Below, piece by piece: positions 845 to 25,534 of a stretch of 30,496 nucleotides of DNA (its first letter is position 1; the number at the start of each line of letters is the position of its first letter). The stretch is from an uncultured archaeon (GTDB lineage: Archaea; Altiarchaeota; Altiarchaeia; JAFGQM01). The DNA lies in NCBI GenBank assembly GCA_964613935.1, contig CAZTIX010000001.1, positions 1 through 30,496 of the forward strand, written 5' to 3'. Both the position numbers and the translations under genes were made by a program. Below the pieces are notes generated by a model that saw only the letters and a program-made list of their open reading frames with translations, did not search any database and was not told where the DNA came from.

Positions 845-1489
845 ATGCACAACACATTTCTCTTCGACATGGACGGAACCCTTGTAGACACCTTCGACCT
901 AATTCACGAATCGTTCAACGCCGCCCTCGCCGAGAACAAGAAGGGGCCCATTACCAAGGAGGACTTCGACAAGAAGCTTTTCGGGAAGCCGGTGGATTCG
1001 ACGGTGATGAGGCTCCTGCGGATATCCGACGACAGGGAGTACGGGAAGGTCGTGAGGGACTTCCGCACCCATTGGCTGCGCAACCTGCAAAAGGTCGAGG
1101 TTTTTAAGAATGTTCCTCTAACTTTAGAGCGGCTCAGGAAGAGGGGCCACAAGCTCGGGGTGGTTAGCACGTCGCCCCGCGGGGTGATATCCGAGACCCT
1201 TCGCCAGACGGGGATATACGACTACTTCGATGTCCTCATAGGAGAGGAGGACGCAAAGAGGAAGAAGCCCCATCAGGAGCCTGTGGTCAACGCGCTCAAG
1301 CTTCTGGGAGCGAAGCCGGAGGAGACGGTCTTCGTGGGCGACACGATATACGACGTGCAGGCGGGCAAGAGAGCGGGTTGCCACACGGTATTCCTTCTCA
1401 ACCCCTACAACGCCGGAGTCCTGGAGGAATCCGAGCCGGACAGAGTCATAAAAAACGTTTCCGAATTGCTGGAAAATGGCGGAACCTGA
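845..1489 (+). CDS. HAD-superfamily hydrolase (PpaX pyrophosphatase / phosphoglycolate phosphatase-like), 214 aa
   Basis: Motif I FDMDGTLVDT, motif II GVVST, motif III KKPHQEP and motif IV FVGDTIYDVQAG. It overlaps the aglB start by 14 nt. Confidence 0.92.
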   Translation: MHNTFLFDMDGTLVDTFDLIHESFNAALAENKKGPITKEDFDKKLFGKPVDSTVMRLLRISDDREYGKVVRDFRTHWLRNLQKVEVFKNVPLTLERLRKRGHKLGVVSTSPRGVISETLRQTGIYDYFDVLIGEEDAKRKKPHQEPVVNALKLLGAKPEETVFVGDTIYDVQAGKRAGCHTVFLLNPYNAGVLEESEPDRVIKNVSELLENGGT

Positions 1490-4400
1490 GAAAAAGCGCA
1501 AGGCTGCGAAGGAGAGGCTGCTGGACCCGGACGCCCTGTCGTCCTCGCCGCAGACCATAGCCCTGATAGCCCTTCTGCTTTTTCTCCTGCTTTGGAGCCT
1601 GTTTCCCAACGGACCCACCACGGTCATGCTGGCCGCGGTGATAATCGGAGCCACCGGGATAAACCTGTACCTGACCACCTCCGACCTTATGGAGTCCGTG
1701 AAGAGCAAGTGGAGCATCCTGCCGGCCGCAATCGGACTGCTTCTGCTGGCGGTGCTTCTCCAGTCTCCCGGGCAGATGCTGCTGATAATACTCCTGGCGT
1801 CTTACGTGGCCCTCTCCATGGCGGTGGCCCTGGGCTTCATAAAAATCCAGACCGCAATAATAATGGGTCTCCTTCTGACCGCGGTGCTCTTCCGGGCATA
1901 TCCTGCGATGCCGGGCTCGGGCAGCTCGGCCGGCCACCTCATATCTATGGACGACCCCTATTTCCACTACAAGCAGACCGAGCGCCTCTACGAGCTGGGC
2001 GACGTGCCTGACAAGGACCTGACGATCTACCCGCCCGACGGCAGGGGCGCACCCCAGAAGTTCCCCTATTACTACAACACCTACCTCGCGCTCCTGACCA
2101 GCAACACGGTGCGCGACGTCATGCTCCTTTATCCCGTTCTTATAGCCGCGTTCGGCGCAATCGCGATGTTCCTCTTCCTCCGGGAGCTCACCGGCGACTG
2201 GAAGAGCGGCATGCTGGGCGGTTTCTTCTTCGCCACAATGCCGGCGGTTCTCAGCAAGTCCGTGGCAGGGGCAGTGGAGGAGGACCTGATGGGGATGGTC
2301 CTGGGCATATTCTCGCTTTATCTCCTGGCCAAGGCCTTCCGCACTTCGGGGCGGGAGAATCTCAAATATTCCCTCCTGTCCGGAGTCGCCTTCTTCATAA
2401 CCCTGATAAGCTGGAAGGGGGTCATATTCCTCTACGCGGTACCCTTCACCGCGCTCGCAATCTACGCCCTGGCGGGCATAATACTCAAACACGACATGTG
2501 GAACACCACCCGCTCCGCCCTTCTCGCCGGGATAATCCCGGTGGCGGGCAACCTGCTGTTCATAAACCCCGGCAGGCTCGACCTCACCCAGCTTGCGCCC
2601 TACGGGGCCCTGCTGTTCATGGGGCTTTGGGCCGAGGTCATAAGGGTCAGGTTATGGAAGGGGGAGGACCGCAAGACCGCTCCGGAGAAGAGATTCATAT
2701 TCCCGCTGGCGATTCTGGTGACTGCGGCCTTGCTGGCCATGGCCGCCTTTGCGGGAGTCGACAGGATAGTCGACATCCCTCAGAGGACCTACGAGAATTT
2801 CGCCGGCACCGGGGCGACCAACTATCTCGTGGACAAGACCATATCCGAGCAGGCAGCGTTCTCGCGGGGAGACCTCCTTCAGCGCCTCTCCATAGGCTAC
2901 GGCCGCTACAACATCGCCGAGGTCCTCACCCTCCTGATGGCCGCCCTCCTGCCCCTGGCAATCCTCTACCACTTTTTCAAGAAGGACAAGGACCGCCTGT
3001 TCGACCTCCTCAGAGCATATCTGATAGGGCTGGTCTTCTTCCTGGTGGCCATGCAGTTCGTTTGGCTGGAGTCGCGCCTGGTATTCTCCCAGTCTCTGGG
3101 CTTCCTGCTCCTGGGCGCAATGGTGGGGCTGATACTGCCGTCGAGCCGCGAGGAGCTGCCCACCTGGAAGGTGATTCCGCTTCTGATAATAATAGTGCTC
3201 ATCCCGTTCTCTACCTTTTACCCGTACAAGGGCCTGGACGCATGGGGGGACAGCCAGAGGGTCTCCGGGGTGCACCCCGCATGGTTCCTGGGGGTCGAGT
3301 GGCTCGACGAGAACATAGAGCCCGGATACTACACCGGCAACGAATACATAAACGGCGATTTCGTCCTCACCTGGTGGGACTACGGCCACTTCATAACCGC
3401 GTTGTCCGACTCCACGGTCATCGCCGACCCGCTACAGGCAAACGAGGAGTACATAATGCGAACAGCCAGGTTCTTCTACAACACCACCTCGGAGAAAGAG
3501 GCGATTGGGTGGCTCATGGAGCAGCCGTGGAACCCCAGGGACGAGACGGGCGAGTACAAGGTCAGGTACATAATCTTGGACGACACCCTCATAAACAAGG
3601 CGTCGGCCCTGGCCTTCCTCGGCACCAACCACTACGAGTATCCCAACGGTTACACGGCGGTCGACGGAGTCTGCGAGGTGGGGCAGGTCTGCCAGAACGT
3701 GGAGAACGGGCTGGAGGCGAGGAGGGTGGACGGCGACTACGTCTGCGATCGGGGCGAGGTTTGCGTGAGGGACCAGAGGGCGAGGACCGAGAAGAGGAGG
3801 TGCTGCGAGCCCGACCCCGCCCAGTGCTGCAACATGTCGCTGAGCTACAAGGTAATAAACCAGAAGAACGGCTCCGCCAGGCTGATGAGGGGGCCGGGAA
3901 CGCCCGTCTACGGCAGGTACACTCTGGAGACGGGGGGCGCGGCCTGCAGGCCGGAGTACGTCACATCCACCGAGCCGGTCTTCGTGGTTGAAGGGGGCGA
4001 GAGGAGGACGGTCACCCGGCGCTTCCTGTACACCGGCTTCAGCGGACTGCCCTACGCCGACGGGGGCCAATATCCCGCCTTCCTCATCATGACCTACGAG
4101 GACGGCACCCAGAGCCTCAAGTTCATAAGCCGCGACTGCTCCACCAAGGACGCCGAAGAGGTCCTGGCCGGGGGCGCCGACCTGCTGAAGAATCTCGGCT
4201 ACGGAAGGAGCATAGGAGATGGCATAAGAGCGCCGCAGATATTCGTCCACGCCCCGAGCAGATGGATGGACAGCATGTTCACGGAGCTCTATCTGAAGGA
4301 CGCCGCGAACTTGCAGCATTTCGAGATAATCGAGGACGCCTTCACTCAGGAGACTTCCGACGGGAAAGCCAACGTGTACCCGGCGGTCAAAATTTACAGG

Positions 4401-5021
4401 ATAACCTACCCCGACAAGATTCCGGAAGCTCCCGGCGGGGAGGAAGAGGCCGTCTCGGAGGAGCAGGAGCCCCAGGAGCAAGAGCCGCCGGCCAGCACAG
4501 TCGACGATACCGGCGAATCCGGAGAGGGCAGCGGCGAGGAGAGCATCCCGAACATGACCTTCGACCGCTATGACCCGGAGCTGCGCGAGGAATACGGCCT
4601 GACGCACTTCCCGGCCATCGTCTGGAACTGCGAGTTCAAGAAGCCCGGCAAGATGTCCAACACGACCTTCGAAGAAGAGGCCCTCTACAAGCTGGCCTGC
4701 ATAATGAACGACGCCGAGCCCCAGGAGCTGTGCCTGTCCCATGAGATATTCTACGATGAGAATGCCGGCAAGGTGAGCACCACCGACCAGGACATAGACG
4801 ACATCCTCAATGGCATAGCCAGGATAGAGAACTCCACAGCCTGCGGCCCGGAGGGCAGCGTCACAACGGTCCAGGTCTTCTACCCGCAGACATGCGAGTC
4901 CTGCGCGGAGCAAAAGCCCCTGCTGGACAAGCTAGAGCAGGATTTCGGCGAGCATCTGGACATATCCTACTACTGCGTAGGCGGCGAGGATTATTGCGTT
5001 CCCCGCCTCGGGGGAGCCTAA
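1476..5021 (+). CDS. aglB: Oligosaccharyltransferase AglB/STT3 with an N-terminal TM extension, a Cys-rich insert and a C-terminal thioredoxin-like appendage, 1181 aa
   Basis: Many TM segments, EL1 motif SMDDPYFH, VEEDLMG, EL5 TISE (TIXE motif), WWDYG at about 3372-3386, ADP, a DK-type helix DDTLINK and the terminal VKIY strand. Confidence 0.96.
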   Translation: MAEPEKKRKAAKERLLDPDALSSSPQTIALIALLLFLLLWSLFPNGPTTVMLAAVIIGATGINLYLTTSDLMESVKSKWSILPAAIGLLLLAVLLQSPGQMLLIILLASYVALSMAVALGFIKIQTAIIMGLLLTAVLFRAYPAMPGSGSSAGHLISMDDPYFHYKQTERLYELGDVPDKDLTIYPPDGRGAPQKFPYYYNTYLALLTSNTVRDVMLLYPVLIAAFGAIAMFLFLRELTGDWKSGMLGGFFFATMPAVLSKSVAGAVEEDLMGMVLGIFSLYLLAKAFRTSGRENLKYSLLSGVAFFITLISWKGVIFLYAVPFTALAIYALAGIILKHDMWNTTRSALLAGIIPVAGNLLFINPGRLDLTQLAPYGALLFMGLWAEVIRVRLWKGEDRKTAPEKRFIFPLAILVTAALLAMAAFAGVDRIVDIPQRTYENFAGTGATNYLVDKTISEQAAFSRGDLLQRLSIGYGRYNIAEVLTLLMAALLPLAILYHFFKKDKDRLFDLLRAYLIGLVFFLVAMQFVWLESRLVFSQSLGFLLLGAMVGLILPSSREELPTWKVIPLLIIIVLIPFSTFYPYKGLDAWGDSQRVSGVHPAWFLGVEWLDENIEPGYYTGNEYINGDFVLTWWDYGHFITALSDSTVIADPLQANEEYIMRTARFFYNTTSEKEAIGWLMEQPWNPRDETGEYKVRYIILDDTLINKASALAFLGTNHYEYPNGYTAVDGVCEVGQVCQNVENGLEARRVDGDYVCDRGEVCVRDQRARTEKRRCCEPDPAQCCNMSLSYKVINQKNGSARLMRGPGTPVYGRYTLETGGAACRPEYVTSTEPVFVVEGGERRTVTRRFLYTGFSGLPYADGGQYPAFLIMTYEDGTQSLKFISRDCSTKDAEEVLAGGADLLKNLGYGRSIGDGIRAPQIFVHAPSRWMDSMFTELYLKDAANLQHFEIIEDAFTQETSDGKANVYPAVKIYRITYPDKIPEAPGGEEEAVSEEQEPQEQEPPASTVDDTGESGEGSGEESIPNMTFDRYDPELREEYGLTHFPAIVWNCEFKKPGKMSNTTFEEEALYKLACIMNDAEPQELCLSHEIFYDENAGKVSTTDQDIDDILNGIARIENSTACGPEGSVTTVQVFYPQTCESCAEQKPLLDKLEQDFGEHLDISYYCVGGEDYCVPRLGGA

Positions 5022-5057: not shown

Positions 5058-6041
5058 ATGCTTCTCATACTCGCAGTTTCCCTGACGGCCTTTCTGGTGA
5101 CGGTCGCGACGGTCCCCGTCCTCATAAGGAAGTTCGCCGATGCGGGCATAACCGGCAAGGATGTCCACAAACCGGGCGAGCCGGAGGTGCCCGAGATGGG
5201 AGGCCTGTCGGTCGTGGCCGGCTTCGCTTCCGGCGTCCTGCTGGCGGTGGCCGCGACAACGCTCTTCGCCAGCCACCTGTTCAACGGCGGAGCGGGATTC
5301 GATTTGACCGGCCTGACCCAGCTATTCGCCGCCCTGAGCACCATACTGATAATAACGATTGTCGGCATATTCGACGACCTGGTCAAGATGCGGCAGAGCG
5401 TCAAGGCCGTGCTGCCCGTCTTCGCCTCGCTGCCCCTGGTGGCAATAGCGGCCGGGCACCCCTACATAACTCTCCCCCTGCTTGGAAGGGCCTACCTGCC
5501 GATAATCTACCCCCTGATACTCATACCCCTGGCGGTCGCGGTAGTCTCGAACCTCACCAACATGCTGGCGGGATTCAACGGCCTCGAGAGCGGCATGGGG
5601 CTGATGGCCTGCATATCCCTGGGAACTGTCGCGGCGTTCCGGGGGAGAGCCGACGCGGCGATACTCCTCCTGTCGATGTCGGGCGCCCTGCTGGCATTCG
5701 CGCTGTTCAACAAATTTCCGGCGCGCATACTCCCTGGAGATGTGGGCACACTCAGCATAGGGGCGTGCGTGGCGTCGTCCCTCATCATAGGCAACTTCGA
5801 GACGGCCGGTCTTCTGGTGATGTCGCCCTACATCCTGGATTTCCTCATAAAGGCCAGAAACGGATTCCCCAAGGAGATTGACCTAACCTCGCTGAAGGGG
5901 GGAAAGCTGACCGCTAAGAAGGCAGTGGGGCTTCCCAGCCTGATAATGAGGGCCACCGGCGGCATAGCGGAGACCCGGCTGGTGACCCTCCTGGTGGGCG
6001 CGGAGGCGGCCCTGGGAATACTGGCGGTGCTGATATGGTAG
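5058..6041 (+). CDS. aglH: UDP-GlcNAc:polyprenyl-phosphate GlcNAc-1-phosphate transferase (AglH/DPAGT1-like, MraY/PNPT family), 327 aa
   Basis: Polytopic membrane protein with GKDVHK, PEMGGL, GIFDD, NLTNMLAGFNGLE and PGDVG. The NMLAGFNGLE motif is of the GPT/DPAGT1 type. Confidence 0.9.
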   Translation: MLLILAVSLTAFLVTVATVPVLIRKFADAGITGKDVHKPGEPEVPEMGGLSVVAGFASGVLLAVAATTLFASHLFNGGAGFDLTGLTQLFAALSTILIITIVGIFDDLVKMRQSVKAVLPVFASLPLVAIAAGHPYITLPLLGRAYLPIIYPLILIPLAVAVVSNLTNMLAGFNGLESGMGLMACISLGTVAAFRGRADAAILLLSMSGALLAFALFNKFPARILPGDVGTLSIGACVASSLIIGNFETAGLLVMSPYILDFLIKARNGFPKEIDLTSLKGGKLTAKKAVGLPSLIMRATGGIAETRLVTLLVGAEAALGILAVLIW

Positions 6042-14979: not shown

Positions 14980-16410
14980 ATGAAGGTCTTTGTCATAGGT
15001 CTGGACGGATGCAACTGGGAGATTTTGGACAAGCTCATCAAAAAGGGAGACCTGCCGAACATAGCGCGCATAAAGAAGGAGGGAGCCCGGGGCAGTCTGG
15101 AGAGCTGCCTTCCGCCGGTGACGGCCCCCAACTGGAAGTGCTACTCGACCGGCAAGAACCCTGGCAAGCTGGGGGTCTTCTGGTGGGAGAGTATCGACTG
15201 CGCCAAGAAGAAGGTGAGCGTCCCCACGTCCTACTCCTTCAAGAGCGGGGAGATGTGGGACCGGATGAGCCGCGAGGGCAAGAGGGTCGCCGTCATCAAC
15301 ATGCCCACCACCTATCCGCCCAAGAGGATCAACGGCTTCATGATATCTGGAGGGCCGGACTCTCTAGAAAGCGGCTTCACCTATCCGAAAGAGCTCGAGG
15401 GCAGGCTAAAGAAGGAGTTCGGCTACCGCGCGCTGCCCAAGAGAGTCAGCCTCTTGGAGTCCGGCAACCGCGAGGTCATAGAGGAGGTTAGGGCGGCGAT
15501 AAGGACGAGGTTCGAGGTCGCCAAGGCCCTGCTGGCGGAGGCCGACTACGACTTCGCCCACCTGACCATCTATTTGATAAACGTGCTCCAGCACTTCTTC
15601 TGGGACGACGACTGCGTCAGGAAGGCCTGGAGGGACATAGACAGGGGCATAGGCGAGCTCATGGAGCAGTTCAAGGAAGCCGACTTCCTGTTCATGTCGG
15701 ACCACGGCTCCAACCGGATAAAGGTCAAGTTCAACATCAACACCTGGCTCGAGAAAGAAGGCTACCTGGCCCTCCGCAGCAAGCCGTCCAAGGGCCTCCT
15801 CCTGAGGCTGGGCCTGAACAAGGAGCGAGTGGTCCGGCTGCTCACCAGGCTGGGCCTGAAGGATTTCGCCAAGAGAGTCGTCGGCGGGCGGGCCAGCCTT
15901 CCCACCTCCGCGGGAGTCGTCCAGAGCGCCGGAAAGGAAGGGGCCGTAGACTGGGGGAAGACAAAGGTCGTCGCCAGCGGACAGGGACCCGTCTATTTGA
16001 ACATACCCAGGAAATCCCCGGAATACCGCCGGGTCAGGGACGAGATAATAGGAAAGCTAGAGAACCTCGAGCATCGGGGTATCAAAATCGCCAAGAAGGT
16101 CCACACGCGGGATGAGATATACTCGGGCCCATATCTCAAGAAGGCTCCCGACCTGATAATCGACCAGGGCGAGAACGTCCACATAACCGGCTCCCTGGGC
16201 TTTGAAAAGGTTTTCAGCAAACCCTCCAAATGGCGAGGCGAGAACTCCAAGTTCGGGGTGTTCATGGCCCGCGGACCCAGAATCAAGAAAGGCAAGGTCA
16301 AAAAGCCGCACATACTCGACCTGGCCCCCACCGCGCTCAAACTGATGGGCATGGAGCCGGGGAGAGGGTTGGACGGCAGAGCCTTGAATATAATCTCCTC
16401 GAGCAGCTGA
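14980..16410 (+). CDS. Alkaline phosphatase superfamily protein (nucleotide pyrophosphatase/phosphodiesterase-like), 476 aa
   Basis: IGLDG, PPVTAPNWKCYSTGKNPG (predicted nucleophile Thr48), DVLQH-like INVLQHFFW, SDHG, APDL and a C-terminal HILDLAPT. No signal peptide. Confidence 0.88.
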   Translation: MKVFVIGLDGCNWEILDKLIKKGDLPNIARIKKEGARGSLESCLPPVTAPNWKCYSTGKNPGKLGVFWWESIDCAKKKVSVPTSYSFKSGEMWDRMSREGKRVAVINMPTTYPPKRINGFMISGGPDSLESGFTYPKELEGRLKKEFGYRALPKRVSLLESGNREVIEEVRAAIRTRFEVAKALLAEADYDFAHLTIYLINVLQHFFWDDDCVRKAWRDIDRGIGELMEQFKEADFLFMSDHGSNRIKVKFNINTWLEKEGYLALRSKPSKGLLLRLGLNKERVVRLLTRLGLKDFAKRVVGGRASLPTSAGVVQSAGKEGAVDWGKTKVVASGQGPVYLNIPRKSPEYRRVRDEIIGKLENLEHRGIKIAKKVHTRDEIYSGPYLKKAPDLIIDQGENVHITGSLGFEKVFSKPSKWRGENSKFGVFMARGPRIKKGKVKKPHILDLAPTALKLMGMEPGRGLDGRALNIISSSS

Positions 16411-16466: not shown

Positions 16467-17258
16467 ATGGACCTCAAAAAATCGCTCAGGCACGCCATGT
16501 TGGCTCTAATGCACGCCACGGGTATGCATCGCCTCTCTCGGAGCGACAGGAAAGGACTACTAGTCCTGGCCTTCCACAAGGTCCCCGACAGGGACGCTTT
16601 CGAGCGGAAGATGCTGATACTGAAGGAGCTCTGCGACATTGCGAGCGTTGGGGATTTCCTGGAGGGGAAGCTCGACCCGGAGCGCCTGAGCGCCGCCGTG
16701 ACCTTCGACGACGGCTTCGCCAGCGTGGCCGAGAACGCCCTTCCCGTTTTGAAGAAGCACTCGATGCCCGCCGTAATATTCCTCACCTCTGGTTTTCTGG
16801 ACTCGAGGGACAAGGGCCGCTTCTGCAGGGAGAATCTCGGGGTGCGGCCGGCCGAAAGCATGACGTGGGAACAGGCAAGGACGGTGAGCGAGGATTTTGA
16901 ATTGGGCGGCCACGGCCGGGGCCATGTGGATTTAGCTTCACTCTCTCCGGCGGACGCCTTGAAAGAGATTGCCGAGGACAGAGAGCGAATAAAGAAGAAG
17001 ACCGGCAAGAAGCCCCGCTATTTCGCCTACCCGCTCGGGGGTGCGAAAAACATAAGTGAGACGGCCAGAAAAGCGGCCGAGAGGGCAGGATATGAGGCCG
17101 CCTTCACCATACTCCCCGGAGTCAACCAGAAGGGCACCGACCGCTTCCTGCTGCGCCGCATATCGGTCGACCCCGGGATGTCCGACACCGCCTTCAAGTC
17201 CGCCGTCCTCGGCAACTACCGAAGGCTGAAAGCGGCCAAGGACGCTCTTGCAAGATGA
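16467..17258 (+). CDS. Polysaccharide deacetylase (CE4/NodB-like), 263 aa
   Basis: LAFHKV, VTFDDG, IFL, MTW, GGHGRGH (metal His pair), FAYPLG and LRRI. Confidence 0.88.
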   Translation: MDLKKSLRHAMLALMHATGMHRLSRSDRKGLLVLAFHKVPDRDAFERKMLILKELCDIASVGDFLEGKLDPERLSAAVTFDDGFASVAENALPVLKKHSMPAVIFLTSGFLDSRDKGRFCRENLGVRPAESMTWEQARTVSEDFELGGHGRGHVDLASLSPADALKEIAEDRERIKKKTGKKPRYFAYPLGGAKNISETARKAAERAGYEAAFTILPGVNQKGTDRFLLRRISVDPGMSDTAFKSAVLGNYRRLKAAKDALAR

Positions 17259-18595
17259 AGCCCCGACCCAACATCCTCTGGATAGTCATGGACGCGGCCA
17301 GGGCGGACCACCTCTCCTGCATGGGCCATTCCAGGAAAACCACGCCCAACGTCGACGCCTTGGCCGAGGAGGGCCTGCTCTTCGAGAACGCCTTCTCCAC
17401 CTCCGACTGGACTCCACCGAGCCACGCCTCCATGCTCACCGGCAAGCTGCCCTGCCGCCACGGCGTCTACGACAAGACGCGCTTCGACCAAATAAGAGAC
17501 AAGACCGTCGGCGAGCGCCTGCCTCCCGAGTACGAGAGCCTGTTCATCGACTCGATGCCACATCTCAGGGGCATCGGAGCCGACCGGGGCTTCAAGAAGA
17601 GGGTGTCCACGACCCTTGACGCGTCTCCCGGACAGCCCCTCTACTGGCAATCGCTCATGAGGGAAGTCCTGGGATTGGACAGTTGGGAGACCTTCTACAA
17701 AGCGGAGACCATAAAATCGTTCGCAGGCGGCGCGCTATCCAGGAAAAAGCCGTTCTTCGTGTTCGCGAACTTCGATGATGCCCACTTCCCCTACGACCCT
17801 CCAAGGAGGTTCGAGAGATTCACAGCCCCGGGCATGGATGGCGATGCGATGAGTAAACTGGCCGGCCGCAAAAGCCTTCTGCGAAATGTAGCTGAGAAGG
17901 TGACCGGCAGGCGAAAATCCGGCCTCCGGCAGACGCTCAGTCGAAAGAGCAAAGATCTCACATCAAAGGAAAAAGAGATTCTAAAGGCCCTCTATGACAG
18001 CGAGCTGCTTTATCTGGACAATGCGATCGGCAAGCTTGTCAATTTCTTGAAATCCAGAGGAATCTACGACAGCACGCTAATCATAATAACCTCGGACCAC
18101 GGAGAGCTCTTCGGCGAGCACGGCAGGGTAATGCACGGCCGGGGGAAGAGCCACAGCCTCTACTCCGCGGTTACGCGCGTGCCCTTGGTTATGAGAGGGC
18201 CGGGAGTCCCACGCAAGAGGGTCGCGGCTATGGTCTCTCTGGCCGACCTCGCCCCGACCGTCTGCTCGCTCCTGGGAATCGGATGCGGGAAGAGGCTTGA
18301 CGGAGTCCCGCTGGTCCCCCCTCGCCGCGAGTATCATGAGCATGTCGTCTCCGAGGCGGAGGGCGTGAAGAGCATAAGGACGAAGACCCGCCACCTCATC
18401 CGGTCGGAGGAGGGGGTTGAGCTCTACGACGTCCCGAAGGACCCCGAAGAGAGGAAAGACATATCGAAGACCGAGAAGAGGACTGCGAAGTCGCTTCTCG
18501 CCCACCTCTCGAAAAAAACCAAGCTCGGCCCCCGCCAGTCGCTGAGAAGCAAGATAACCCGCCTGAAGAAGTCGGGTCGCCCGGGCGGCTCCTGA
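17255..18595 (+). CDS. Sulfatase-like hydrolase/transferase (AP superfamily) lacking the formylglycine motif, 446 aa
   Basis: PNILWIVMDAARADH, TPNVD, WTPPSHASMLTG (Thr in place of C/SxPxR), DAHFPY, LYDSELLYLD, TSDHGE, VPLVM and ELYD. Confidence 0.9.
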   Translation: MKPRPNILWIVMDAARADHLSCMGHSRKTTPNVDALAEEGLLFENAFSTSDWTPPSHASMLTGKLPCRHGVYDKTRFDQIRDKTVGERLPPEYESLFIDSMPHLRGIGADRGFKKRVSTTLDASPGQPLYWQSLMREVLGLDSWETFYKAETIKSFAGGALSRKKPFFVFANFDDAHFPYDPPRRFERFTAPGMDGDAMSKLAGRKSLLRNVAEKVTGRRKSGLRQTLSRKSKDLTSKEKEILKALYDSELLYLDNAIGKLVNFLKSRGIYDSTLIIITSDHGELFGEHGRVMHGRGKSHSLYSAVTRVPLVMRGPGVPRKRVAAMVSLADLAPTVCSLLGIGCGKRLDGVPLVPPRREYHEHVVSEAEGVKSIRTKTRHLIRSEEGVELYDVPKDPEERKDISKTEKRTAKSLLAHLSKKTKLGPRQSLRSKITRLKKSGRPGGS

Positions 18596-18835: not shown

Positions 18836-18841
18836 TTGGCC

Positions 18842-19777
18842 ATGCCCAGTGAAGTCCCTTACTTAGTCGAAGGCGCTGAGAGGAAGTTAGCCGGAGAGGA
18901 CTGGGACGTTCTCATAATCCTAGATGCCTGCAGGTACGACTTCTTCAAACGCCTCTATTCAGAACACATAGGCGCAGAGCTCGGAAGGGCCGTCTCTCCA
19001 GCCACGTGCACCATGGAGTGGCTCAGCAAGGTTTTTCCCGGCCAGTACAAAGACACGGTTTACATATCCGCCAATCCCTACATAAACTCCAAGAAGGCCA
19101 GCAGAGACCGTCGCGGACACGTATATGACGGAAAGAAGCACTTCTTCAAGGTCATCGACTCCTGGCTGACCGGGTGGGACGATGCCATAAAGTCAGTGCC
19201 CCCGGAGAGGGTCACCGCCGCCTTCAGGAAGGCCCGTTTGAAATATCCCAAAAAGCGGATTGTCCTCCACTACATCCAGCCCCATTTCCCCTACATAGGC
19301 GAGTCCCATAGGCGCTATCTCGCAGGAGTCTCAAAAGAATCCATCCAACATCATTCCCTGCCTCCGAAAACATCGGAGAGGAGGAATACATCTAAAAAGG
19401 ACTTGCTTGCACCACTCAAGAAGCGCGCAATCAGCCTCATATTCCGATTCTTCGGCACAGCCGGCGTCTGGAGGACAGTGACCTTCCTCCACCCGAACCG
19501 CCGCGTCTCGCAGCAAGTCAAGATATACCTGAGCGAGGGCTGGGAGGGAATCAGAAAGGCTTACGAGGAGAACCTCAGAATCGTCCTGAAAGAGGCGTTC
19601 CGGGTTGCGAGCAGGAACGACCTCAACATCCTGATAACCTCCGACCACGGCGAGCTTTTGGGCGAGCACGGGTTGTTCGGGCATCGAGTTAACTCGCGAA
19701 AGCGAGAGAACACGGAGGTTCCCTGGCTTGTTATGAGAAAAGGCCCTCATGAAGAAAGCAGCAGGGCTGGCGATTAA
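18842..19777 (+). CDS. AP-superfamily (sulfatase-like) protein of the type found in archaeal glycosylation clusters
   Basis: LIILDACRYD, SPATCTMEW, SANP, HYIQPHFPY, ITSDHGELLGEHGLFGH and VPW. The start is placed at ATG 18842 (the track uses TTG 18836). Confidence 0.85.
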   Translation: MPSEVPYLVEGAERKLAGEDWDVLIILDACRYDFFKRLYSEHIGAELGRAVSPATCTMEWLSKVFPGQYKDTVYISANPYINSKKASRDRRGHVYDGKKHFFKVIDSWLTGWDDAIKSVPPERVTAAFRKARLKYPKKRIVLHYIQPHFPYIGESHRRYLAGVSKESIQHHSLPPKTSERRNTSKKDLLAPLKKRAISLIFRFFGTAGVWRTVTFLHPNRRVSQQVKIYLSEGWEGIRKAYEENLRIVLKEAFRVASRNDLNILITSDHGELLGEHGLFGHRVNSRKRENTEVPWLVMRKGPHEESSRAGD

Positions 19778-19794: not shown

Positions 19795-22230
19795 TCACGA
19801 GAGGGCTTCAAACACTTCGCGGTTGCTTATTTTTTTAACCCCGGATTCTATCTTCTGCGATTCATCCTCAAAGTTCTTGACAAGCGAATCGACCCGCCTG
19901 CGCAGGTCTGCTTTCCTGAAAGTCCCCTCCCCCTTTATCAAATAGTGCTCTTGCCCAAATCGCCCGAGGAGTTCCCCGTACTTTTCAGCCCAGCTGATGC
20001 TCAGCGCAGGCACTCCCTTGTTGTATGCGTGCACGATGCCGTGATATCTTGAGCTTACTATGAAATCCATTTGCCCCAAAATGAATTCCAAATCAATTGC
20101 TTCAATCTCCTGGGGAAAGTATTTTACCCCCGCGTCATCCTGATAAGCATGGGCCAGTTTTTCACAGAGCCACTTGTCCATTTCAGAGTATCTCAGAATC
20201 ATCACATTTTTTCCCAATCCCCGGACCCGATCTATTATCTGACGATATGCCTCAAGCAGGCTAGCCTCGCTCTTCTTGGACAGAACCCTGCTGTTCGGCA
20301 CCAGCGCCACAGACCCCTTCGCAACCCTTGCCTTCCCCTCCTCGGACGGCGATTTGTAGATGTTCCGCAGCTCGTATTTGCGCCTTCCCAAAACCAAGTC
20401 CGGTTTTTTCTCTACGTTTTTCCTTGTGAAAAACGCTAGGTCTTTCCGTCCTTGCTCCTCCCTCACGAATATTTTCCTAGGATATCTCAAATAGAGGAGC
20501 ATCAGGGGGTAAAGCAGCACTTTGTTAAGAATTCCATATTCAAAAGGCCCTATAGACTGCGGCAGGATGTAATAAGGCACGGAATATTTCTTAGCTAGCA
20601 TAATGTTCAACATGTATTTCAGGGAACCCCCGATGCCCGTCTGGGACGACAGGGCGAAGCCGCTTATGTCGACTATGAATCTCGCTCTCTTGACAGTCTC
20701 CTCGATTCTCTTCAATCCTGCCGGCCCTGTTTGACCTCCCAAAAGCCTAATCTGCGAATCAAAACTCCAAGGGACTGCTTCAAACGCGTATGCCCCCTTG
20801 TTCTTCCTCTTTGCAGCCCTGCTTGAGAACACATAAATCTTCGACTTCGGAAAGCGACGCTTCAGCTCGTCCACAGCAGTGAAAAGCATCGATTGAGACC
20901 CTTTGTTGGAGGGTTGAGCCCCCAGGATTACAATGTTCTCCCCCCCTTTTTGCCCCCTGCCTCTTTTCAATCCGTCCAAAAGTATTCTCAAGAAAAGAAT
21001 GCACAACTTTGCCATAATCTCAAAGGCCTTCTTTGCCTTCCTGCGAATGTCGGAAAGAAATAGCGACCTTGCAATCTTGCGATAGCGCCTCCCCCTTCCC
21101 ATCGAGATTTTGTTCCTGCGCTCCGACAGCTTCTTTTTCGCTTGTTTGACCCCTTCCGGGGCCGGTCGGCCGCTGATTTCGGCCTCCAAAATCCTCAGGC
21201 ATTCCCAGTTGAACCTCTTCTTTTTCATGCCCTGGGATTCCTGGATATCCCCTATGGAGCATTCCTCTGTCTCAAAGCAACTTTTGTGCTTTTGAAAGTA
21301 GCGCCTCCCCTTTTTGCTCCTTATGATGACGCTGGAGTCTCCGTTTCGGGAGGACTTCAGCGGAACATAGCAGTCGCCGAGGGATATGTCGGCTGAAGCG
21401 TTCAGCTTGTCCAGGCAGAACAGGCACCTTTCTAGCTGGAAGTAGTTCTTTAGCCGCATGCGCTCATTTCGCTCCACTATGAGCTCTCTCCCCGAATCAA
21501 ACACCAGCCTTACGTCTCCAGGCCACCCATTTTTCTTGTAGCGGTAGTCAAAAGACACGAGGCGTTCGTCATCCCGGCCGTATTTCTTCCTAAAGAAATC
21601 CACAAGGTTGAAATTCAGGGTTTTGTCACAGAAGAGCCCCAGGAAAAGGACTTTTTTGTCAGGAAGCCCCCCCCGCTCCATATATTTTTTGATTCCCGCT
21701 ATCTGGCAGGGAGTGCCGACTATCACACAATTCGGAGTTTCTGATTCCTTCATGTACTCTATTATCTCACTCATCGACGCCGGCAAATATTTGGATTTGG
21801 CAGCACTTCTCACTTTTGGGGGATCCCTCACCTCTTTTAATCTGGCAGGCCCCTCCTCAGAAGCGTCAAAGTCCAGAAGGAAGGCCCGTTCGAAATCCCC
21901 GCTTTCCAAAAGCCTCTCAACTAGCTTGCTGGCAATCCCGCCGCTGGTCGAAGCCATCCGACCCTCCAATTCCTTATCATGAGCTATATAACAGCCCATA
22001 TGATTTCCCGCCAGTAGGCTCTCATCAAAACTCTCGGGAACACAATCGACGTTCCATCCAGGGCACAGATTCAGGCAGAGACCGCAGTTGGTGCAGGCCT
22101 CCTCATCAACGCGCGGAAGGAACTGCCCGCCTTTAAACTCCATCGAAACTGCGCCGGCAGGACAGACGGCAGAGCACATGCCGCAGGATGTGCACAAATT
22201 GCGCTCCCTCGTCTTAAGAACATTGTCCAT
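19795..22230 (-). CDS. Fusion of a 2x[4Fe-4S] ferredoxin, an F420-hydrogenase beta subunit (FrhB/FdhB)-like domain and a polysaccharide pyruvyltransferase-like domain, 811 aa
   Basis: CTSCGMCSAVCP, CTNCGLCLNLCP, STSGG, SKY, VGTPCQI, GLFC, GWPG, CLFCLD and DISLGD, followed from about aa 432 by NKG, DISGFA, PQSIGPF, VRE, PDLV and SSRYHGIVHAYNKGVP. Confidence 0.85.
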   Translation of the reverse strand: MDNVLKTRERNLCTSCGMCSAVCPAGAVSMEFKGGQFLPRVDEEACTNCGLCLNLCPGWNVDCVPESFDESLLAGNHMGCYIAHDKELEGRMASTSGGIASKLVERLLESGDFERAFLLDFDASEEGPARLKEVRDPPKVRSAAKSKYLPASMSEIIEYMKESETPNCVIVGTPCQIAGIKKYMERGGLPDKKVLFLGLFCDKTLNFNLVDFFRKKYGRDDERLVSFDYRYKKNGWPGDVRLVFDSGRELIVERNERMRLKNYFQLERCLFCLDKLNASADISLGDCYVPLKSSRNGDSSVIIRSKKGRRYFQKHKSCFETEECSIGDIQESQGMKKKRFNWECLRILEAEISGRPAPEGVKQAKKKLSERRNKISMGRGRRYRKIARSLFLSDIRRKAKKAFEIMAKLCILFLRILLDGLKRGRGQKGGENIVILGAQPSNKGSQSMLFTAVDELKRRFPKSKIYVFSSRAAKRKNKGAYAFEAVPWSFDSQIRLLGGQTGPAGLKRIEETVKRARFIVDISGFALSSQTGIGGSLKYMLNIMLAKKYSVPYYILPQSIGPFEYGILNKVLLYPLMLLYLRYPRKIFVREEQGRKDLAFFTRKNVEKKPDLVLGRRKYELRNIYKSPSEEGKARVAKGSVALVPNSRVLSKKSEASLLEAYRQIIDRVRGLGKNVMILRYSEMDKWLCEKLAHAYQDDAGVKYFPQEIEAIDLEFILGQMDFIVSSRYHGIVHAYNKGVPALSISWAEKYGELLGRFGQEHYLIKGEGTFRKADLRRRVDSLVKNFEDESQKIESGVKKISNREVFEALS

Positions 22231-22698: not shown

Positions 22699-22742
22699 GA
22701 TTGACCCAAATGGAACCTGAGCTAGGGAAGCACTGCGTGGGC

Positions 22743-23540
22743 ATGAGCCATCTGGATGAGCTGGAGAGCAAGAGCGTCTTCATAATCCGGGAGGCCTACA
22801 AGCAGTTCAAGAACATAGCGATGCTGTGGTCCATCGGAAAGGATTCCAGCTGCCTCCTCTGGCTAGTCAGAAAGGCCTTCTACGGCCGCATACCCTTTCC
22901 TGTCATACACATAGACACCGGCTACCAGATACCCAAGATGATAGAATGGCGCGACAAGTACGCCAAGAAGTGGAACCTCAACCTGATAATCTCCCAGAAC
23001 AAGGAGGCCCTGGAGCGAGGCATGAACAACAAGAGCAAGCTGGCCTGCTGCACGGCTCTCAAGACCGACGCCCTGAAGCAGACGTTGGACGAGCACAAAT
23101 TTAGAGCTCTGCTGCTGGGAATCCGAAGGGACGAGCACGGTGTTAGGGCGAAGGAGAGGGTCTTCTCCCCCCGCAATCAGGACTTCAAGTGGGACTACAA
23201 GAACCAACCCCCCGAGCTCTGGGACCAGTACAAGGCCAAGGCCGAGGAGAAGGAGCACATCAGGGTCCACCCCCTCCTGCACTGGACCGAGGTCGACGTC
23301 TGGGAGTACATAAAGCGTGAGAGCATACCCCTCATACCCCTTTACTTCGCCAAGGACGGGAAGCGCTACCGGAGCCTGGGATGCGAGTGTTGCTGCGCCC
23401 CGGTGGACTCGGACGCAGACACAATCGACAAGGTCATAGGCGAGCTGAAGATGACTCGCCAGGGCGAGAGGGACGGCCGGGCCCAGGACAAGGAGGAGGC
23501 GAACGCAATGCAGAAGCTGAGGGCACTGGGCTACATGTGA
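22743..23540 (+). CDS. cysD: Sulfate adenylyltransferase subunit 2 (ATP sulfurylase small subunit)
   Basis: LDELESKSVFIIREA, PP-loop WSIGKDS, HIDTG, GIRRDE...RAKER, RVHPLLHWTE, RYRSLGC, ERDGRAQD and terminal LRALGYM. The start may instead be ATG 22710. Confidence 0.95.
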   Translation: MSHLDELESKSVFIIREAYKQFKNIAMLWSIGKDSSCLLWLVRKAFYGRIPFPVIHIDTGYQIPKMIEWRDKYAKKWNLNLIISQNKEALERGMNNKSKLACCTALKTDALKQTLDEHKFRALLLGIRRDEHGVRAKERVFSPRNQDFKWDYKNQPPELWDQYKAKAEEKEHIRVHPLLHWTEVDVWEYIKRESIPLIPLYFAKDGKRYRSLGCECCCAPVDSDADTIDKVIGELKMTRQGERDGRAQDKEEANAMQKLRALGYM

Positions 23541-23550
23541 CAAGCTAAAA

Positions 23551-24783
23551 ATGGAGGCAAGCGAGGAGTATCTTAGGCTGGTAATCGTAGGGCACGTGGA
23601 CCACGGGAAGTCGACGCTGATAGGCCGGCTTCTCTACGATACCGGCTCGCTTCCAGAGGGCAAGATAGAGGAGATAAAGAGCATCTGCAACGCCCTGGGC
23701 AAGGAGCTGGAGTTCGGCTATGTCATGGACAACCTAGAGGAGGAAAGAGACCAGAGCGTGACCATCGACACCGCCCAGATATTCTTCAAGACTGACAAGC
23801 GCCACTATGTGATAATCGACGCCCCCGGCCACGTGGAGTTTGTCAAGAACATGGTGACGGGCGCGTCCCAGGCCGAGGCGGCCGTCCTCATAGTTGACGC
23901 CGAGGAGGGGGTTCAGGAGCAGACCCGGCGCCATGCCTACATCCTCGGCATGCTCGGCCTGAAGCAGGTCGCGGTCGTGGTTAACAAGATGGACCTGGTC
24001 GGCTACTCCGAGGAGCGGTTCGACGAGGTTTCAAAGGACCTCAGGCAATTTCTGGGGAAAATAGGCATAGACCCCACCTACGTAATCCCCATATCCGCTC
24101 GCGAGGGCGATTTCGTGGCGGGGAAGACCGGCAGCATGCCCTGGCACGACGGCCCCACTGTCTTGGAGGCGCTCGATTCCTTCAAGCCTCGCGAGCCCCG
24201 CATGAGCAAGCCGCTGAGGTTCTCGGCGCAGGACGTCTACAAGCGGGACAAGCGGATAATCGTGGGCCGCGTGGAGAGCGGGACGCTCCGAAAGGGGGAG
24301 GAAGTCCTGGTGCTTCCTTCCGGAGAGAAGACCTCCGTCAGGAGCATCGAGGAGTGGCTCAAGGACGACGTCAGGGAGGCGGTGGCCGGCAAGGCCACGG
24401 GCCTCACTACCGAGGACAAGCTCTTCATAGACCGGGGCGACGTGCTGTGCGACCCCAAGAAACCGCCCACAGTGACCGACCGGTTTGAGGCGCAGCTTTT
24501 CTGGATGGACAAGGCCCCTCTGAAGAAGGGGGAGAGGATAATACTGAAATGCTCCACCCAGAAGGCCGTGTGCGAGGTCGAGGAGTTCAAGAGAGTGCTG
24601 GACTCCTCCACCCTGCGGGAGCTGGAGGGCAAAGAAGAGCTGGGCAACCGGGAGGTGGCCGATGCGGTGATAAAGACCGACAAGCCCATAGTCATCGAGG
24701 ATTTCAACAAGACGGAGGAGCTGGGCCGGTTCGTCCTGGAGCGGCTCAACACCTGCGCGGGGGGGATAATAACCGGAGCATGA
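23551..24783 (+). CDS. cysN: Sulfate adenylyltransferase subunit 1 (EF-Tu-like GTPase) without a fused APS-kinase domain, 410 aa
   Basis: GHVDHGKSTLIGRLLYDT, EERDQSVTID, DAPGH, MVTGASQA, QTRRH, NKMD, PISA and a terminal GRFVL...AGGII. It directly follows cysD. Confidence 0.95.
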   Translation: MEASEEYLRLVIVGHVDHGKSTLIGRLLYDTGSLPEGKIEEIKSICNALGKELEFGYVMDNLEEERDQSVTIDTAQIFFKTDKRHYVIIDAPGHVEFVKNMVTGASQAEAAVLIVDAEEGVQEQTRRHAYILGMLGLKQVAVVVNKMDLVGYSEERFDEVSKDLRQFLGKIGIDPTYVIPISAREGDFVAGKTGSMPWHDGPTVLEALDSFKPREPRMSKPLRFSAQDVYKRDKRIIVGRVESGTLRKGEEVLVLPSGEKTSVRSIEEWLKDDVREAVAGKATGLTTEDKLFIDRGDVLCDPKKPPTVTDRFEAQLFWMDKAPLKKGERIILKCSTQKAVCEVEEFKRVLDSSTLRELEGKEELGNREVADAVIKTDKPIVIEDFNKTEELGRFVLERLNTCAGGIITGA

Positions 24784-24811: not shown

Positions 24812-25534
24812 ATGATCGCCGTCTACGCCATAGACGCCCTGGAGTTCAACAGGGTCGAGAAGTACGACACCAAGAATCTCAAGCAGGAGCACTACGGCAA
24901 GACCGACATAAGCGAGTTCTCCCAACCGCGCACCATGGTCCTTTGGAGCTCCTTCATGACCGGGGAGAACAAGGAGAAGGAGATTCTGGCCAAGGGCGAC
25001 AAGGAGATGTGGAACACCCGGATACCCCTTGAGAAGACCTTCTTCTCGCAGTTCGACAGCCCGAAAATCCTGGACCTGCCCGGCTACAACTACGACCTGG
25101 GGGTCCACGAGAAGTCCAGGAAACTGCTCAAGTCGTTCTTCGATGCGAAGAGCGACGCGGAGAAGGAGCGCATAAGAAAGGAGTACAACAAGGACGCCTT
25201 CGAGCACCACAAAACGGTCAGGAAGCGCTTCCTCGGGGCGCTCGGAGAGGACCGCGATTTCGTCCTGGGCTATTTCAGCGTTGCCGACGTGGTGGGACAC
25301 CTCAACTTCGGCAACGACCTGATGATGAAGATGATATACCGGGAGCTGGACGAGCTGGCGGCGAAGGTCAGGGAAACGGCCGACCGCGTCTTGGTTCTGT
25401 CGGACCACGGTATGAAGGCCATCGGCAGATTCGGCGACCATTCCGGATACGGCTTCTGGAGCACGAACTGGGATGCGGGGCTGGACAGCCCCAGAATTAC
25501 CGACATGAAGGACTCGATACTCGCATTGAAATAG
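24812..25534 (+). CDS. Minimal AP-superfamily protein (core fold only), 240 aa
   Basis: AIDALE, QPRTMVLWSSFMTG (predicted nucleophile Thr41), ADVVGH, LSDHG and GDHS. Confidence 0.8.
   Translation: MIAVYAIDALEFNRVEKYDTKNLKQEHYGKTDISEFSQPRTMVLWSSFMTGENKEKEILAKGDKEMWNTRIPLEKTFFSQFDSPKILDLPGYNYDLGVHEKSRKLLKSFFDAKSDAEKERIRKEYNKDAFEHHKTVRKRFLGALGEDRDFVLGYFSVADVVGHLNFGNDLMMKMIYRELDELAAKVRETADRVLVLSDHGMKAIGRFGDHSGYGFWSTNWDAGLDSPRITDMKDSILALK

Follow-up and report, generated by a model that had tools for sequence, protein, structure and literature searches.

A circularly permuted thioredoxin fold at the C-terminus of AglB in uncultured archaea related to Altiarchaeota

The 30,496-nt stretch of contig CAZTIX010000001.1 (assembly GCA_964613935.1, from an uncultured archaeon of the Altiarchaeota), referred to here as the window, contains on its plus strand a gene for the oligosaccharyltransferase (OST) AglB/STT3, which ends in a linker and a cysteine-rich domain, the subject of this work (Table 1). 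The gene is one unbroken open reading frame (ORF) of 1181 amino acids at positions 1476-5021, closed by a TAA stop at 5019-5021. Its product matched Pfam STT3 (PF02516) at 2.2e-17 (64 bits against a cutoff of 24.5), with the N-terminal match covering residues 157-361, and it matched TIGR04154 at 9e-32 but under the subfamily cutoff of 450; STT3-PglB_core and AglB_core gave weak matches at residues 627-675. The sequence W633 W634 D635 Y636 G637 H638 (WWDYGH) was invariant across five aligned AglBs, and D159-D160 (SMDDPY) was invariant in the AglB alignment, its assignment to the catalytic first external loop being by position only. With these matches, and with its place within an agl gene cluster, the ORF is a genuine AglB/STT3, as the initial annotation, which had been made from the sequence alone, had proposed. 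Transmembrane-like (TM-like) segments stop at approximately residue 587 in a hydropathy scan, and all 18 cysteines of the protein lie within residues 733-1174, ten in the globular domain (733-888) and eight in the tail, an even count in each domain. STT3/AglB proteins have their C-terminal globular domain on the extracytoplasmic side, and because no hydrophobic segment follows residue ~587, the tail is placed outside the cell, as had also been claimed.

The canonical end of AglB (PAVKIYRITYP) has P979 as its last residue and ends at 4412. It is followed by a linker of 44 amino acids (residues 980-1023) and by a domain of 158 amino acids (AglB residues 1024-1181, positions 4545-5018), which together make up the last 609 nt of aglB. 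Residues of this domain are also numbered below from 1 to 158. The segment ELREEYGLTHFPAIV occupies AglB residues 1034-1048, and the CxxC motif, CESC (C1140-C1143, positions 4893-4904), lies near the other end of the domain, the C-terminus being 38 residues beyond it. The end of the STT3 part at about 4412, the acidic Pro/Gly linker and the position of CESC had all been described in the initial annotation, and these coordinates were found to be exact.

Table 1. Coordinates of aglB, of the parts of its product and of the two conserved flanking genes in the window.
Feature	Coordinates	Strand	Basis
HAD-family hydrolase gene, conserved 5' neighbour	845-1489	+	Pfam HAD_2, 2.5e-45; synteny in L002-L008
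aglB: STT3 membrane domain, external catalytic/globular domain, linker, predicted permuted thioredoxin-fold domain	1476-5021	+	Pfam, TIGR04154, full-length alignment with five-domain relatives
AglB multi-spanning membrane domain, residues 1 to ~590, no Cys	1476-3245	+	hydropathy scan, Pfam STT3
WWDYG catalytic motif, residues 633-637	3372-3386	+	alignment, core-profile matches
Cys-rich insertion in the external AglB domain (C733, C739, C757, C763, CC776/777, CC784/785)	3672-3830	+	Cys positions
Acidic Pro/Gly/Ser-rich linker	4413-4544	+	composition: 13 E, 3 D, 5 P, 6 G, 5 S
Predicted permuted fold, first half (domain 1-54): alpha2, cis-Pro loop (P1046, codon 4611-4613), beta3, beta4, alpha3	4545-4706	+	AF2: H11-16, E24-27, E31-34, H40-54
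Predicted connector subdomain (domain 55-105): helix, beta-hairpin, helix; C1086 and C1123 inside	4707-4859	+	AF2: H60-64, E68-71, E76-79, H84-89
Predicted permuted fold, second half (domain 106-158): beta1, CESC starting alpha1, beta2, short C-terminal helix, C1167, C1174	4860-5018	+	AF2: E107-114, H118-137, E138-145
GT4-family (AglH/WecA-like) sugar-phosphate transferase gene, conserved 3' neighbour	5058-6041	+	Pfam Glycos_transf_4, 2.9e-33; L001-L008

In the tail, the cis-Pro-type motif (YGLTHFPAIVWNC) lies upstream of the CxxC motif (VQVFYPQTCESC), which is the reverse of the order in a normal thioredoxin and had not been remarked on in the initial annotation. The AlphaFold2 (AF2) model built from a 30-sequence alignment reached a predicted local distance difference test score (pLDDT) of 93.5 and a predicted template modelling score (pTM) of 0.88, and it superseded an unusable model from a two-sequence alignment (pLDDT 48). 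The elements of this model listed in Table 1, together with the connector hairpin at 68-79 and a C-terminal helix at 148-154, follow the order (a)bba-connector-bab(a), that is, alpha2-beta3-beta4-alpha3, a connector of ~50 amino acids, and beta1-alpha1-beta2. The connector bridges what were ancestrally the C-terminus (alpha3) and the N-terminus (beta1), and CESC (domain C117-C120) comes directly after the strand E107-114, at the start of the helix H118-137. The four-stranded sheet and the flanking helices of the thioredoxin-fold superfamily are thus all present in the model, with the canonical linear order absent. When the model was compared with the PDB by Foldseek, the sole significant match was an engineered circularly permuted DsbA (1UN2; E 9e-5, probability 1.0, 152 columns, TMq 0.54), ordinary thioredoxins aligned with the model over only ~51 columns, and no match was found among viral structures.

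The profile comparisons pointed in the same direction. In the natural-order profile of the tail, positions 110-151 matched residues 2-43 of the Methanocaldococcus jannaschii thioredoxin 1FO5 (E 3e-9) and positions 9-40 matched the C-terminal part of DsbA chains, and the first half of the domain (1-54) aligned to the YGIMAVPTIVIN region of 1FO5 as well as to that C-terminal part of DsbA chains. When each sequence was cut before the conserved Cys100 and its halves were swapped, the resulting de-permuted profile matched 1FO5 as two colinear segments (E 2.3e-9), the second with the invariant Pro on the VPT loop, and also matched 1NHO (E 4e-6). Some members of this sequence family (P0026, P0032, P0033, P0035, P0038, and P0044) have the canonical order and no connector, and hhalign aligned the de-permuted alignment to these relatives over 112 colinear columns (probability 99.8, E 2.5e-30), compared with 61 columns in natural order. 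Furthermore, Pfam Thioredoxin_2 was matched by 14 of the 23 de-permuted members, and in P0030, a stand-alone permuted protein, the Pfam matches are swapped, with the N-terminal part of Thioredoxin_2 at 162-188 and the C-terminal part of DSBA at 50-106. The NCBIfam SaoT thioredoxin-like family gave a weak match to the second half of the domain. Together, the model and the profiles show the tail to be a circular permutation of a complete thioredoxin fold and not two half-domains. The initial annotation had described a strand-CxxC-helix thioredoxin with a cis-Pro loop, for which a structure search was advised; that search found the fold, and the CxxC and the Pro loop stand as well, but the plain order does not. 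Four other members of the family (P0027, P0028, P0031, and P0034) are multi-domain proteins with tandem repeats of the thioredoxin-like unit, in which CxxC halves and cis-Pro halves alternate, and it is plausible that such arrays were the evolutionary source of the permutation through the classical route of duplication and trimming.

The relatives of the tail were obtained in several ways. A word-indexed homologue search with the tail returned one relative, P0001, which is 45% identical, keeps all eight cysteines, and has a GT4 gene downstream. An exhaustive HMMER search of 1.84 billion representative proteins returned 44 relatives, 25 of them at E<1e-10, and this recurrence in sequence indicates that the tail is more than a chance extension. 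Some of these relatives (P0002, P0005, P0007, and P0012) are AglBs of 1256-1367 amino acids with the domain at the extreme C-terminus, and several others are fragments of such proteins; approximately 15 are membrane-anchored paralogues of 350-470 amino acids, and some are small TM-anchored proteins consisting of the domain alone. A scan of genomes with a pattern from the tail alignment gave 40 pattern matches, none of which was confirmed, and a scan with the whole-AglB alignment succeeded instead. In the latter, which covered one genome per GTDB species, 77 AglB loci were found, and only the six closest (L003-L008) carried the tail. These six match the window's AglB over its full length at 43-61% identity (61% for L003 and 58% for L004), and the next-best AglBs (22-29% identity), most of them from Altiarchaeota, have no such tail. 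The label of L008 is Candidatus Altiarchaeota archaeon PPR_0003, and that of the other tail-bearing loci is 'uncultured archaeon'. The survey of AglB C-termini that had been suggested earlier thus located the tail in these six loci and in the four full-length AglBs from HMMER. Altogether, 16 distinct tails of the AglB type were compared, no two of which were 70% or more identical, and nine of them are on full-length AglBs, the window's included. The order HAD-AglB-GT4 was found in all seven other loci that had flanking sequence (L002-L008). Therefore, the in-frame fusion of AglB and tail is genuine and conserved, and the architecture AglB-(FKBP)-permuted thioredoxin, in which the FKBP domain is found in most members, is specific to a lineage of uncultured archaea related to Altiarchaeota.

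The tail is accompanied by a second folding domain in most of these proteins. Pfam FKBP_C (PF00254, 1e-8 to 1e-26) was matched after the AglB end (…VKIYK[IV]TYP) and ahead of the permuted thioredoxin fold in P0002, P0005, P0006, P0007, P0012, L003, L004, L006, L007, and L008, at about 150-250 residues before the C-terminus, and the C-terminal motif of FKBP is visible in the fragments P0001 and P0003. In total, FKBP precedes eleven or twelve of the 16 tails. Judged from its domain content, the AglB tail of most family members is thus a putative two-enzyme folding cassette. FKBP_C had no Pfam match in the window's AglB or in L005, where a low-complexity linker is found instead, and in the AglB alignment the 44-residue linker of the window faces the FKBP domain of P0002, P0005, P0007, and P0012. 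Because the closest relatives, L003 and L004, carry FKBP, the domain was probably lost in the window's lineage.

The membrane-anchored paralogues also align to the FKBP-thioredoxin cassette of AglB by hhalign, weakly over the FKBP part. In two genomes (L080, 1999-4742; L081, 6001-8818), the gene of a paralogue made up of a TM segment, an uncharacterised N-terminal domain, a possible degenerate FKBP-like region, and the permuted thioredoxin fold lies between gatB and, following it, a gene for a membrane-anchored double DsbA-like protein with CPYC. The paralogue P0010 and the locus L080 belong to the assembly that also contains the AglB fusion L008. From this gene content, the organisms that bear the tail are predicted to possess an extracytoplasmic thiol-disulfide system.

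Eight positions of the domain were invariant in all 30 sequences of the family: P23, Q123, which is just after the CxxC, and six cysteines (C29, C52, C63, C100, C144, and C151). C52 and C63 are confined to the permuted members, which have the connector, and C29/C100 and C144/C151 are also found in members with the canonical order. Because the cysteines are conserved in pairs that follow the permuted or the canonical order, the tail is probably stabilized by three invariant disulfides, C1052-C1123, C1075-C1086, and C1167-C1174. The remaining two cysteines, C1140 and C1143 of the CxxC, would adjoin the loop of the invariant Pro1046, a proximity that, like the cis conformation of this proline, is predicted from the fold. 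The CxxC is kept in 14 of the 16 AglB-type tails, with the intervening dipeptides ES, DN, EQ, AT, AE, ED, EK, QA, PE, DS, AD, PV, SQ, and GD. In L005 and L006 the motif is CxxxC (CAESC and CDASC), which, with its flanking cysteines, resembles the SEAS/SQAS motif of paralogues that have no CxxC.

On these grounds, we favor, at somewhat better than even confidence, the interpretation that the tail serves as a tethered thiol-disulfide oxidoreductase or holdase working on proteins that emerge beside AglB. The flexible acidic tether would bring the domain to newly translocated polypeptides beside the OST active site, where it would engage substrate cysteines by thiol-disulfide exchange. Two outcomes can be envisaged: cysteine-containing segments might be held unfolded until nearby sequons are glycosylated, as with OST3/6, or disulfides might be introduced right after glycosylation, as with DsbA. 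This interpretation is supported because the domain is fused to AglB, because of the CxxC and cis-Pro geometry that the fold predicts, and because of the FKBP partner and the DsbA-like genes near a paralogue. Redox catalysis by the tail is plausible given its motifs, and a coupling of its function to glycosylation is well motivated by the domain arrangement; the idea of such a coupling gains independent support because most orthologues carry FKBP between AglB and the thioredoxin-fold domain. In its fullest form, the proposal would be that of a single-chain AglB for glycosylation plus folding, in which a natural, permuted and active oxidoreductase, usually with an FKBP, acts on the same nascent secreted proteins as the OST, convergent with the arrangement of STT3 and OST3/6. 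This broader proposal is a tentative one, possible but falling short of even confidence.

Several findings weigh against an oxidoreductase function. Among the cysteines of the tail, those of the CxxC are the least conserved: two of the 16 AglB-type tails carry CxxxC, and in seven of the 30 members of the wider family the motif is SxxS or half-lost while the other six cysteines, P23, and Q123 are invariant, so that family members persist without a redox pair. The conservation of the CxxC that the initial annotation had counted on thus holds for most AglB-type tails but not for the wider family. The dipeptide ES of the window's motif is atypical among characterised oxidoreductases, the 30-kb window showed no gene for a redox partner (DsbB, VKOR, or CcdA), and as a single sequence the window's domain did not reach any Pfam thioredoxin family. 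In addition, both the disulfide pairs and the proximity of the CxxC to the Pro loop are derived from the fold. The losses of the CxxC in members that retain all the other invariant residues, and the lack of a partner gene in the window, would fit a redox-inert, disulfide-stabilized thioredoxin-fold module that acts as a peptide-binding chaperone or in docking to proteins or the cell envelope, like the b/b' domains of PDI, with the CxxC being structural or a relic. We nevertheless regard such a module as less likely, since an exact CxxC at the N-terminus of a helix is found in 14 of the 16 AglB-type tails despite free middle residues, an invariant cis-Pro loop typifies active sites, relatives in canonical order have a classic CPYC or CPFC, and a paralogue adjoins DsbA-like genes.

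It is more doubtful still that the tail works as an intramolecular foldase for disulfides within the Cys-rich external domain of AglB itself (733-888, 10 Cys) and not for those of glycosylation substrates. A tether would favor intramolecular action, and the tail-bearing AglBs also have a conserved Cys-rich insertion with CC..CC pairs, which in the window spans residues 733-785 and is largely conserved in P0002, P0007, and P0012. However, the domain also occurs in membrane-anchored paralogues and in stand-alone proteins without AglB, P0005 has the tail though much of the insertion is gone, and the co-fused FKBP suggests a general folding function; we consider this self-directed role improbable. 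Finally, the possibility that a missed stop, a frameshift, or a chimeric contig merged aglB with a separate thioredoxin-like gene, for which it could be said that the window's exact protein has no record in public assemblies and one homologue by the word-indexed search, was rejected and is practically excluded because tails recur on AglBs with conserved synteny, no fewer than 9 further independent assemblies showing the fusion amid conserved neighbours, the frame being continuous and the GC content uniform across the junction, and a scan for promoters and terminators around the junction having revealed no signal that would split aglB.

Several known systems come close to the tail. OST3/OST6 (Ost3p/Ost6p in yeast, TUSC3/MagT1 in human) likewise place a thioredoxin-fold CxxC domain beside STT3 on the non-cytoplasmic side, in a position plausible for engaging substrate cysteines before or around glycosylation. 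In contrast, OST3/6 is a separate polypeptide in which a thioredoxin domain of canonical order is followed by four TM helices, whereas the window's domain is fused to the C-terminus of AglB, is permuted, has no TM anchor, and would have three extra invariant disulfides. Neither the whole protein nor its tail matched PF04756 (OST3/OST6) at E<=1, nor did the 23 de-permuted members at E<=0.1, and no chain of the OST3/6 family was named among the best 60 of 128 and the best 60 of 102 PDB sequence matches (E<=1) of two profiles. Homology to OST3/6 was therefore rejected, and because there is no match to PF04756, no 4-TM anchor, and a permuted order, the parallel is one of analogy or convergence; the initial annotation had gone further in presenting the fusion as an echo of the STT3-OST3/6 partnership. 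Its observation was confirmed, and its interpretation was supported in part. Its premise that prokaryotic OSTs are single-subunit enzymes is also dated, since separate homologues of OST3/6 and OST1 have been reported in TACK and Asgard archaea, though not in this lineage (PMC11417166).

The permutation of the tail is best compared with that of cpDsbA_Q100T99 (1UN2), in which the new termini are also between beta2 and alpha2 of the thioredoxin fold, and the cis-Pro half thus precedes the CxxC half. The latter protein is a laboratory construct of Escherichia coli DsbA with the helical insertion domain and a CPHC site; the window's domain is 14% identical to it, is natural and smaller, has a helix-hairpin-helix connector, and is fused to an OST. 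From the DsbA family in general, it differs in having CESC instead of a CPHC-type site and in the position of the connector, which is topologically different from that of the DsbA helical insertion. Among proteins of solved structure, MJ0307 (1FO5) and Mt0807 (1NHO) are the closest in sequence, and both halves align to them, but they are cytoplasmic proteins of 85 amino acids that follow the canonical order and have neither the connector nor the six extra cysteines. The canonical-order relatives share with the tail CxxCxxQ[KR], the YxC...C pair, GTP..[IV]NC, and a Cys before beta1; they differ in the normal thioredoxin order, in lacking the connector and the C52-C63 pair, in being anchored by a single TM segment, and in not being fused to AglB.

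The AglBs of Archaeoglobus fulgidus, Pyrococcus furiosus, and Haloferax volcanii share with the window's protein the STT3 membrane domain, WWDYG, the external globular domain, and the agl cluster. To our knowledge, described AglBs end with the globular domain, and no report describes one that has an FKBP or a thioredoxin-fold domain at its C-terminus. A literature search found no description of AglB fused to FKBP or to a thioredoxin fold, an absence that is not proof, most subscription journals being outside its coverage, and a search on permuted thioredoxin folds in archaea likewise found no such fusion described.

The tail contains three N-x-S/T sequons and may itself be glycosylated. One of them, NMT (N1026-M-T, positions 4551-4559), opens the domain and is kept in most AglB-type tails, being present also in P0001-P0004, P0006, L003, L005, L007, and L008, with NIT in L004. 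In addition, many relatives have N-[ILV]-[ST] just upstream of the YYC motif.

On the 3' side of aglB, the agl cluster contains, besides the GT4 sugar-phosphate transferase, genes for epimerases, a UDP-sugar dehydrogenase, and many GT1-family transferases, and farther along the window there are genes for sulfate activation, sulfatase-like proteins, a pyruvyl-transferase, and a methyltransferase. A pair of CysD-like (PAPS_reduct) and CysN-like (EF-Tu GTPase) genes lies inside this glycosylation cluster at 22701-24783, near three genes of the sulfatase/phosphodiesterase family (14980-16410, 17255-18595, and 24812-25534), which together hint at a sulfated glycan. The window also encodes a protein of 811 amino acids on the minus strand (19795-22230), in which a ferredoxin/FrhB-like (F420 hydrogenase beta) module is fused to a polysaccharide pyruvyl transferase domain, and the cluster includes an ORF of 313 amino acids (18836-19777) with no Pfam match at E<=1e-4. 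No tRNA genes or Rfam families were found in the window.

The OSTs of bacteria and of most archaea are regarded as catalytic subunits and nothing more, and a link between N-glycosylation and oxidative folding is attributed to the multi-subunit OST of eukaryotes, perhaps also of Asgard and TACK archaea. The AglB architecture with a naturally permuted CxxC thioredoxin fold is real, conserved, and so far undescribed. If the coupling proposed here is true, a clade of AglBs to which folding domains are covalently joined would mean that gene fusion independently gave rise to this functional coupling, and AglB-FKBP-thioredoxin would offer a simple single-polypeptide system for the effects of a redox or chaperone module on sequon occupancy. 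The domain would also be a natural example of a CxxC thioredoxin fold that tolerates permutation at a site found by the engineering of DsbA, and, if the permuted oxidoreductase is active, a rare natural permutation of a redox-active thioredoxin. For the organisms themselves, these observations flag an uncultured lineage related to Altiarchaeota as one that may have an elaborate extracytoplasmic disulfide system.

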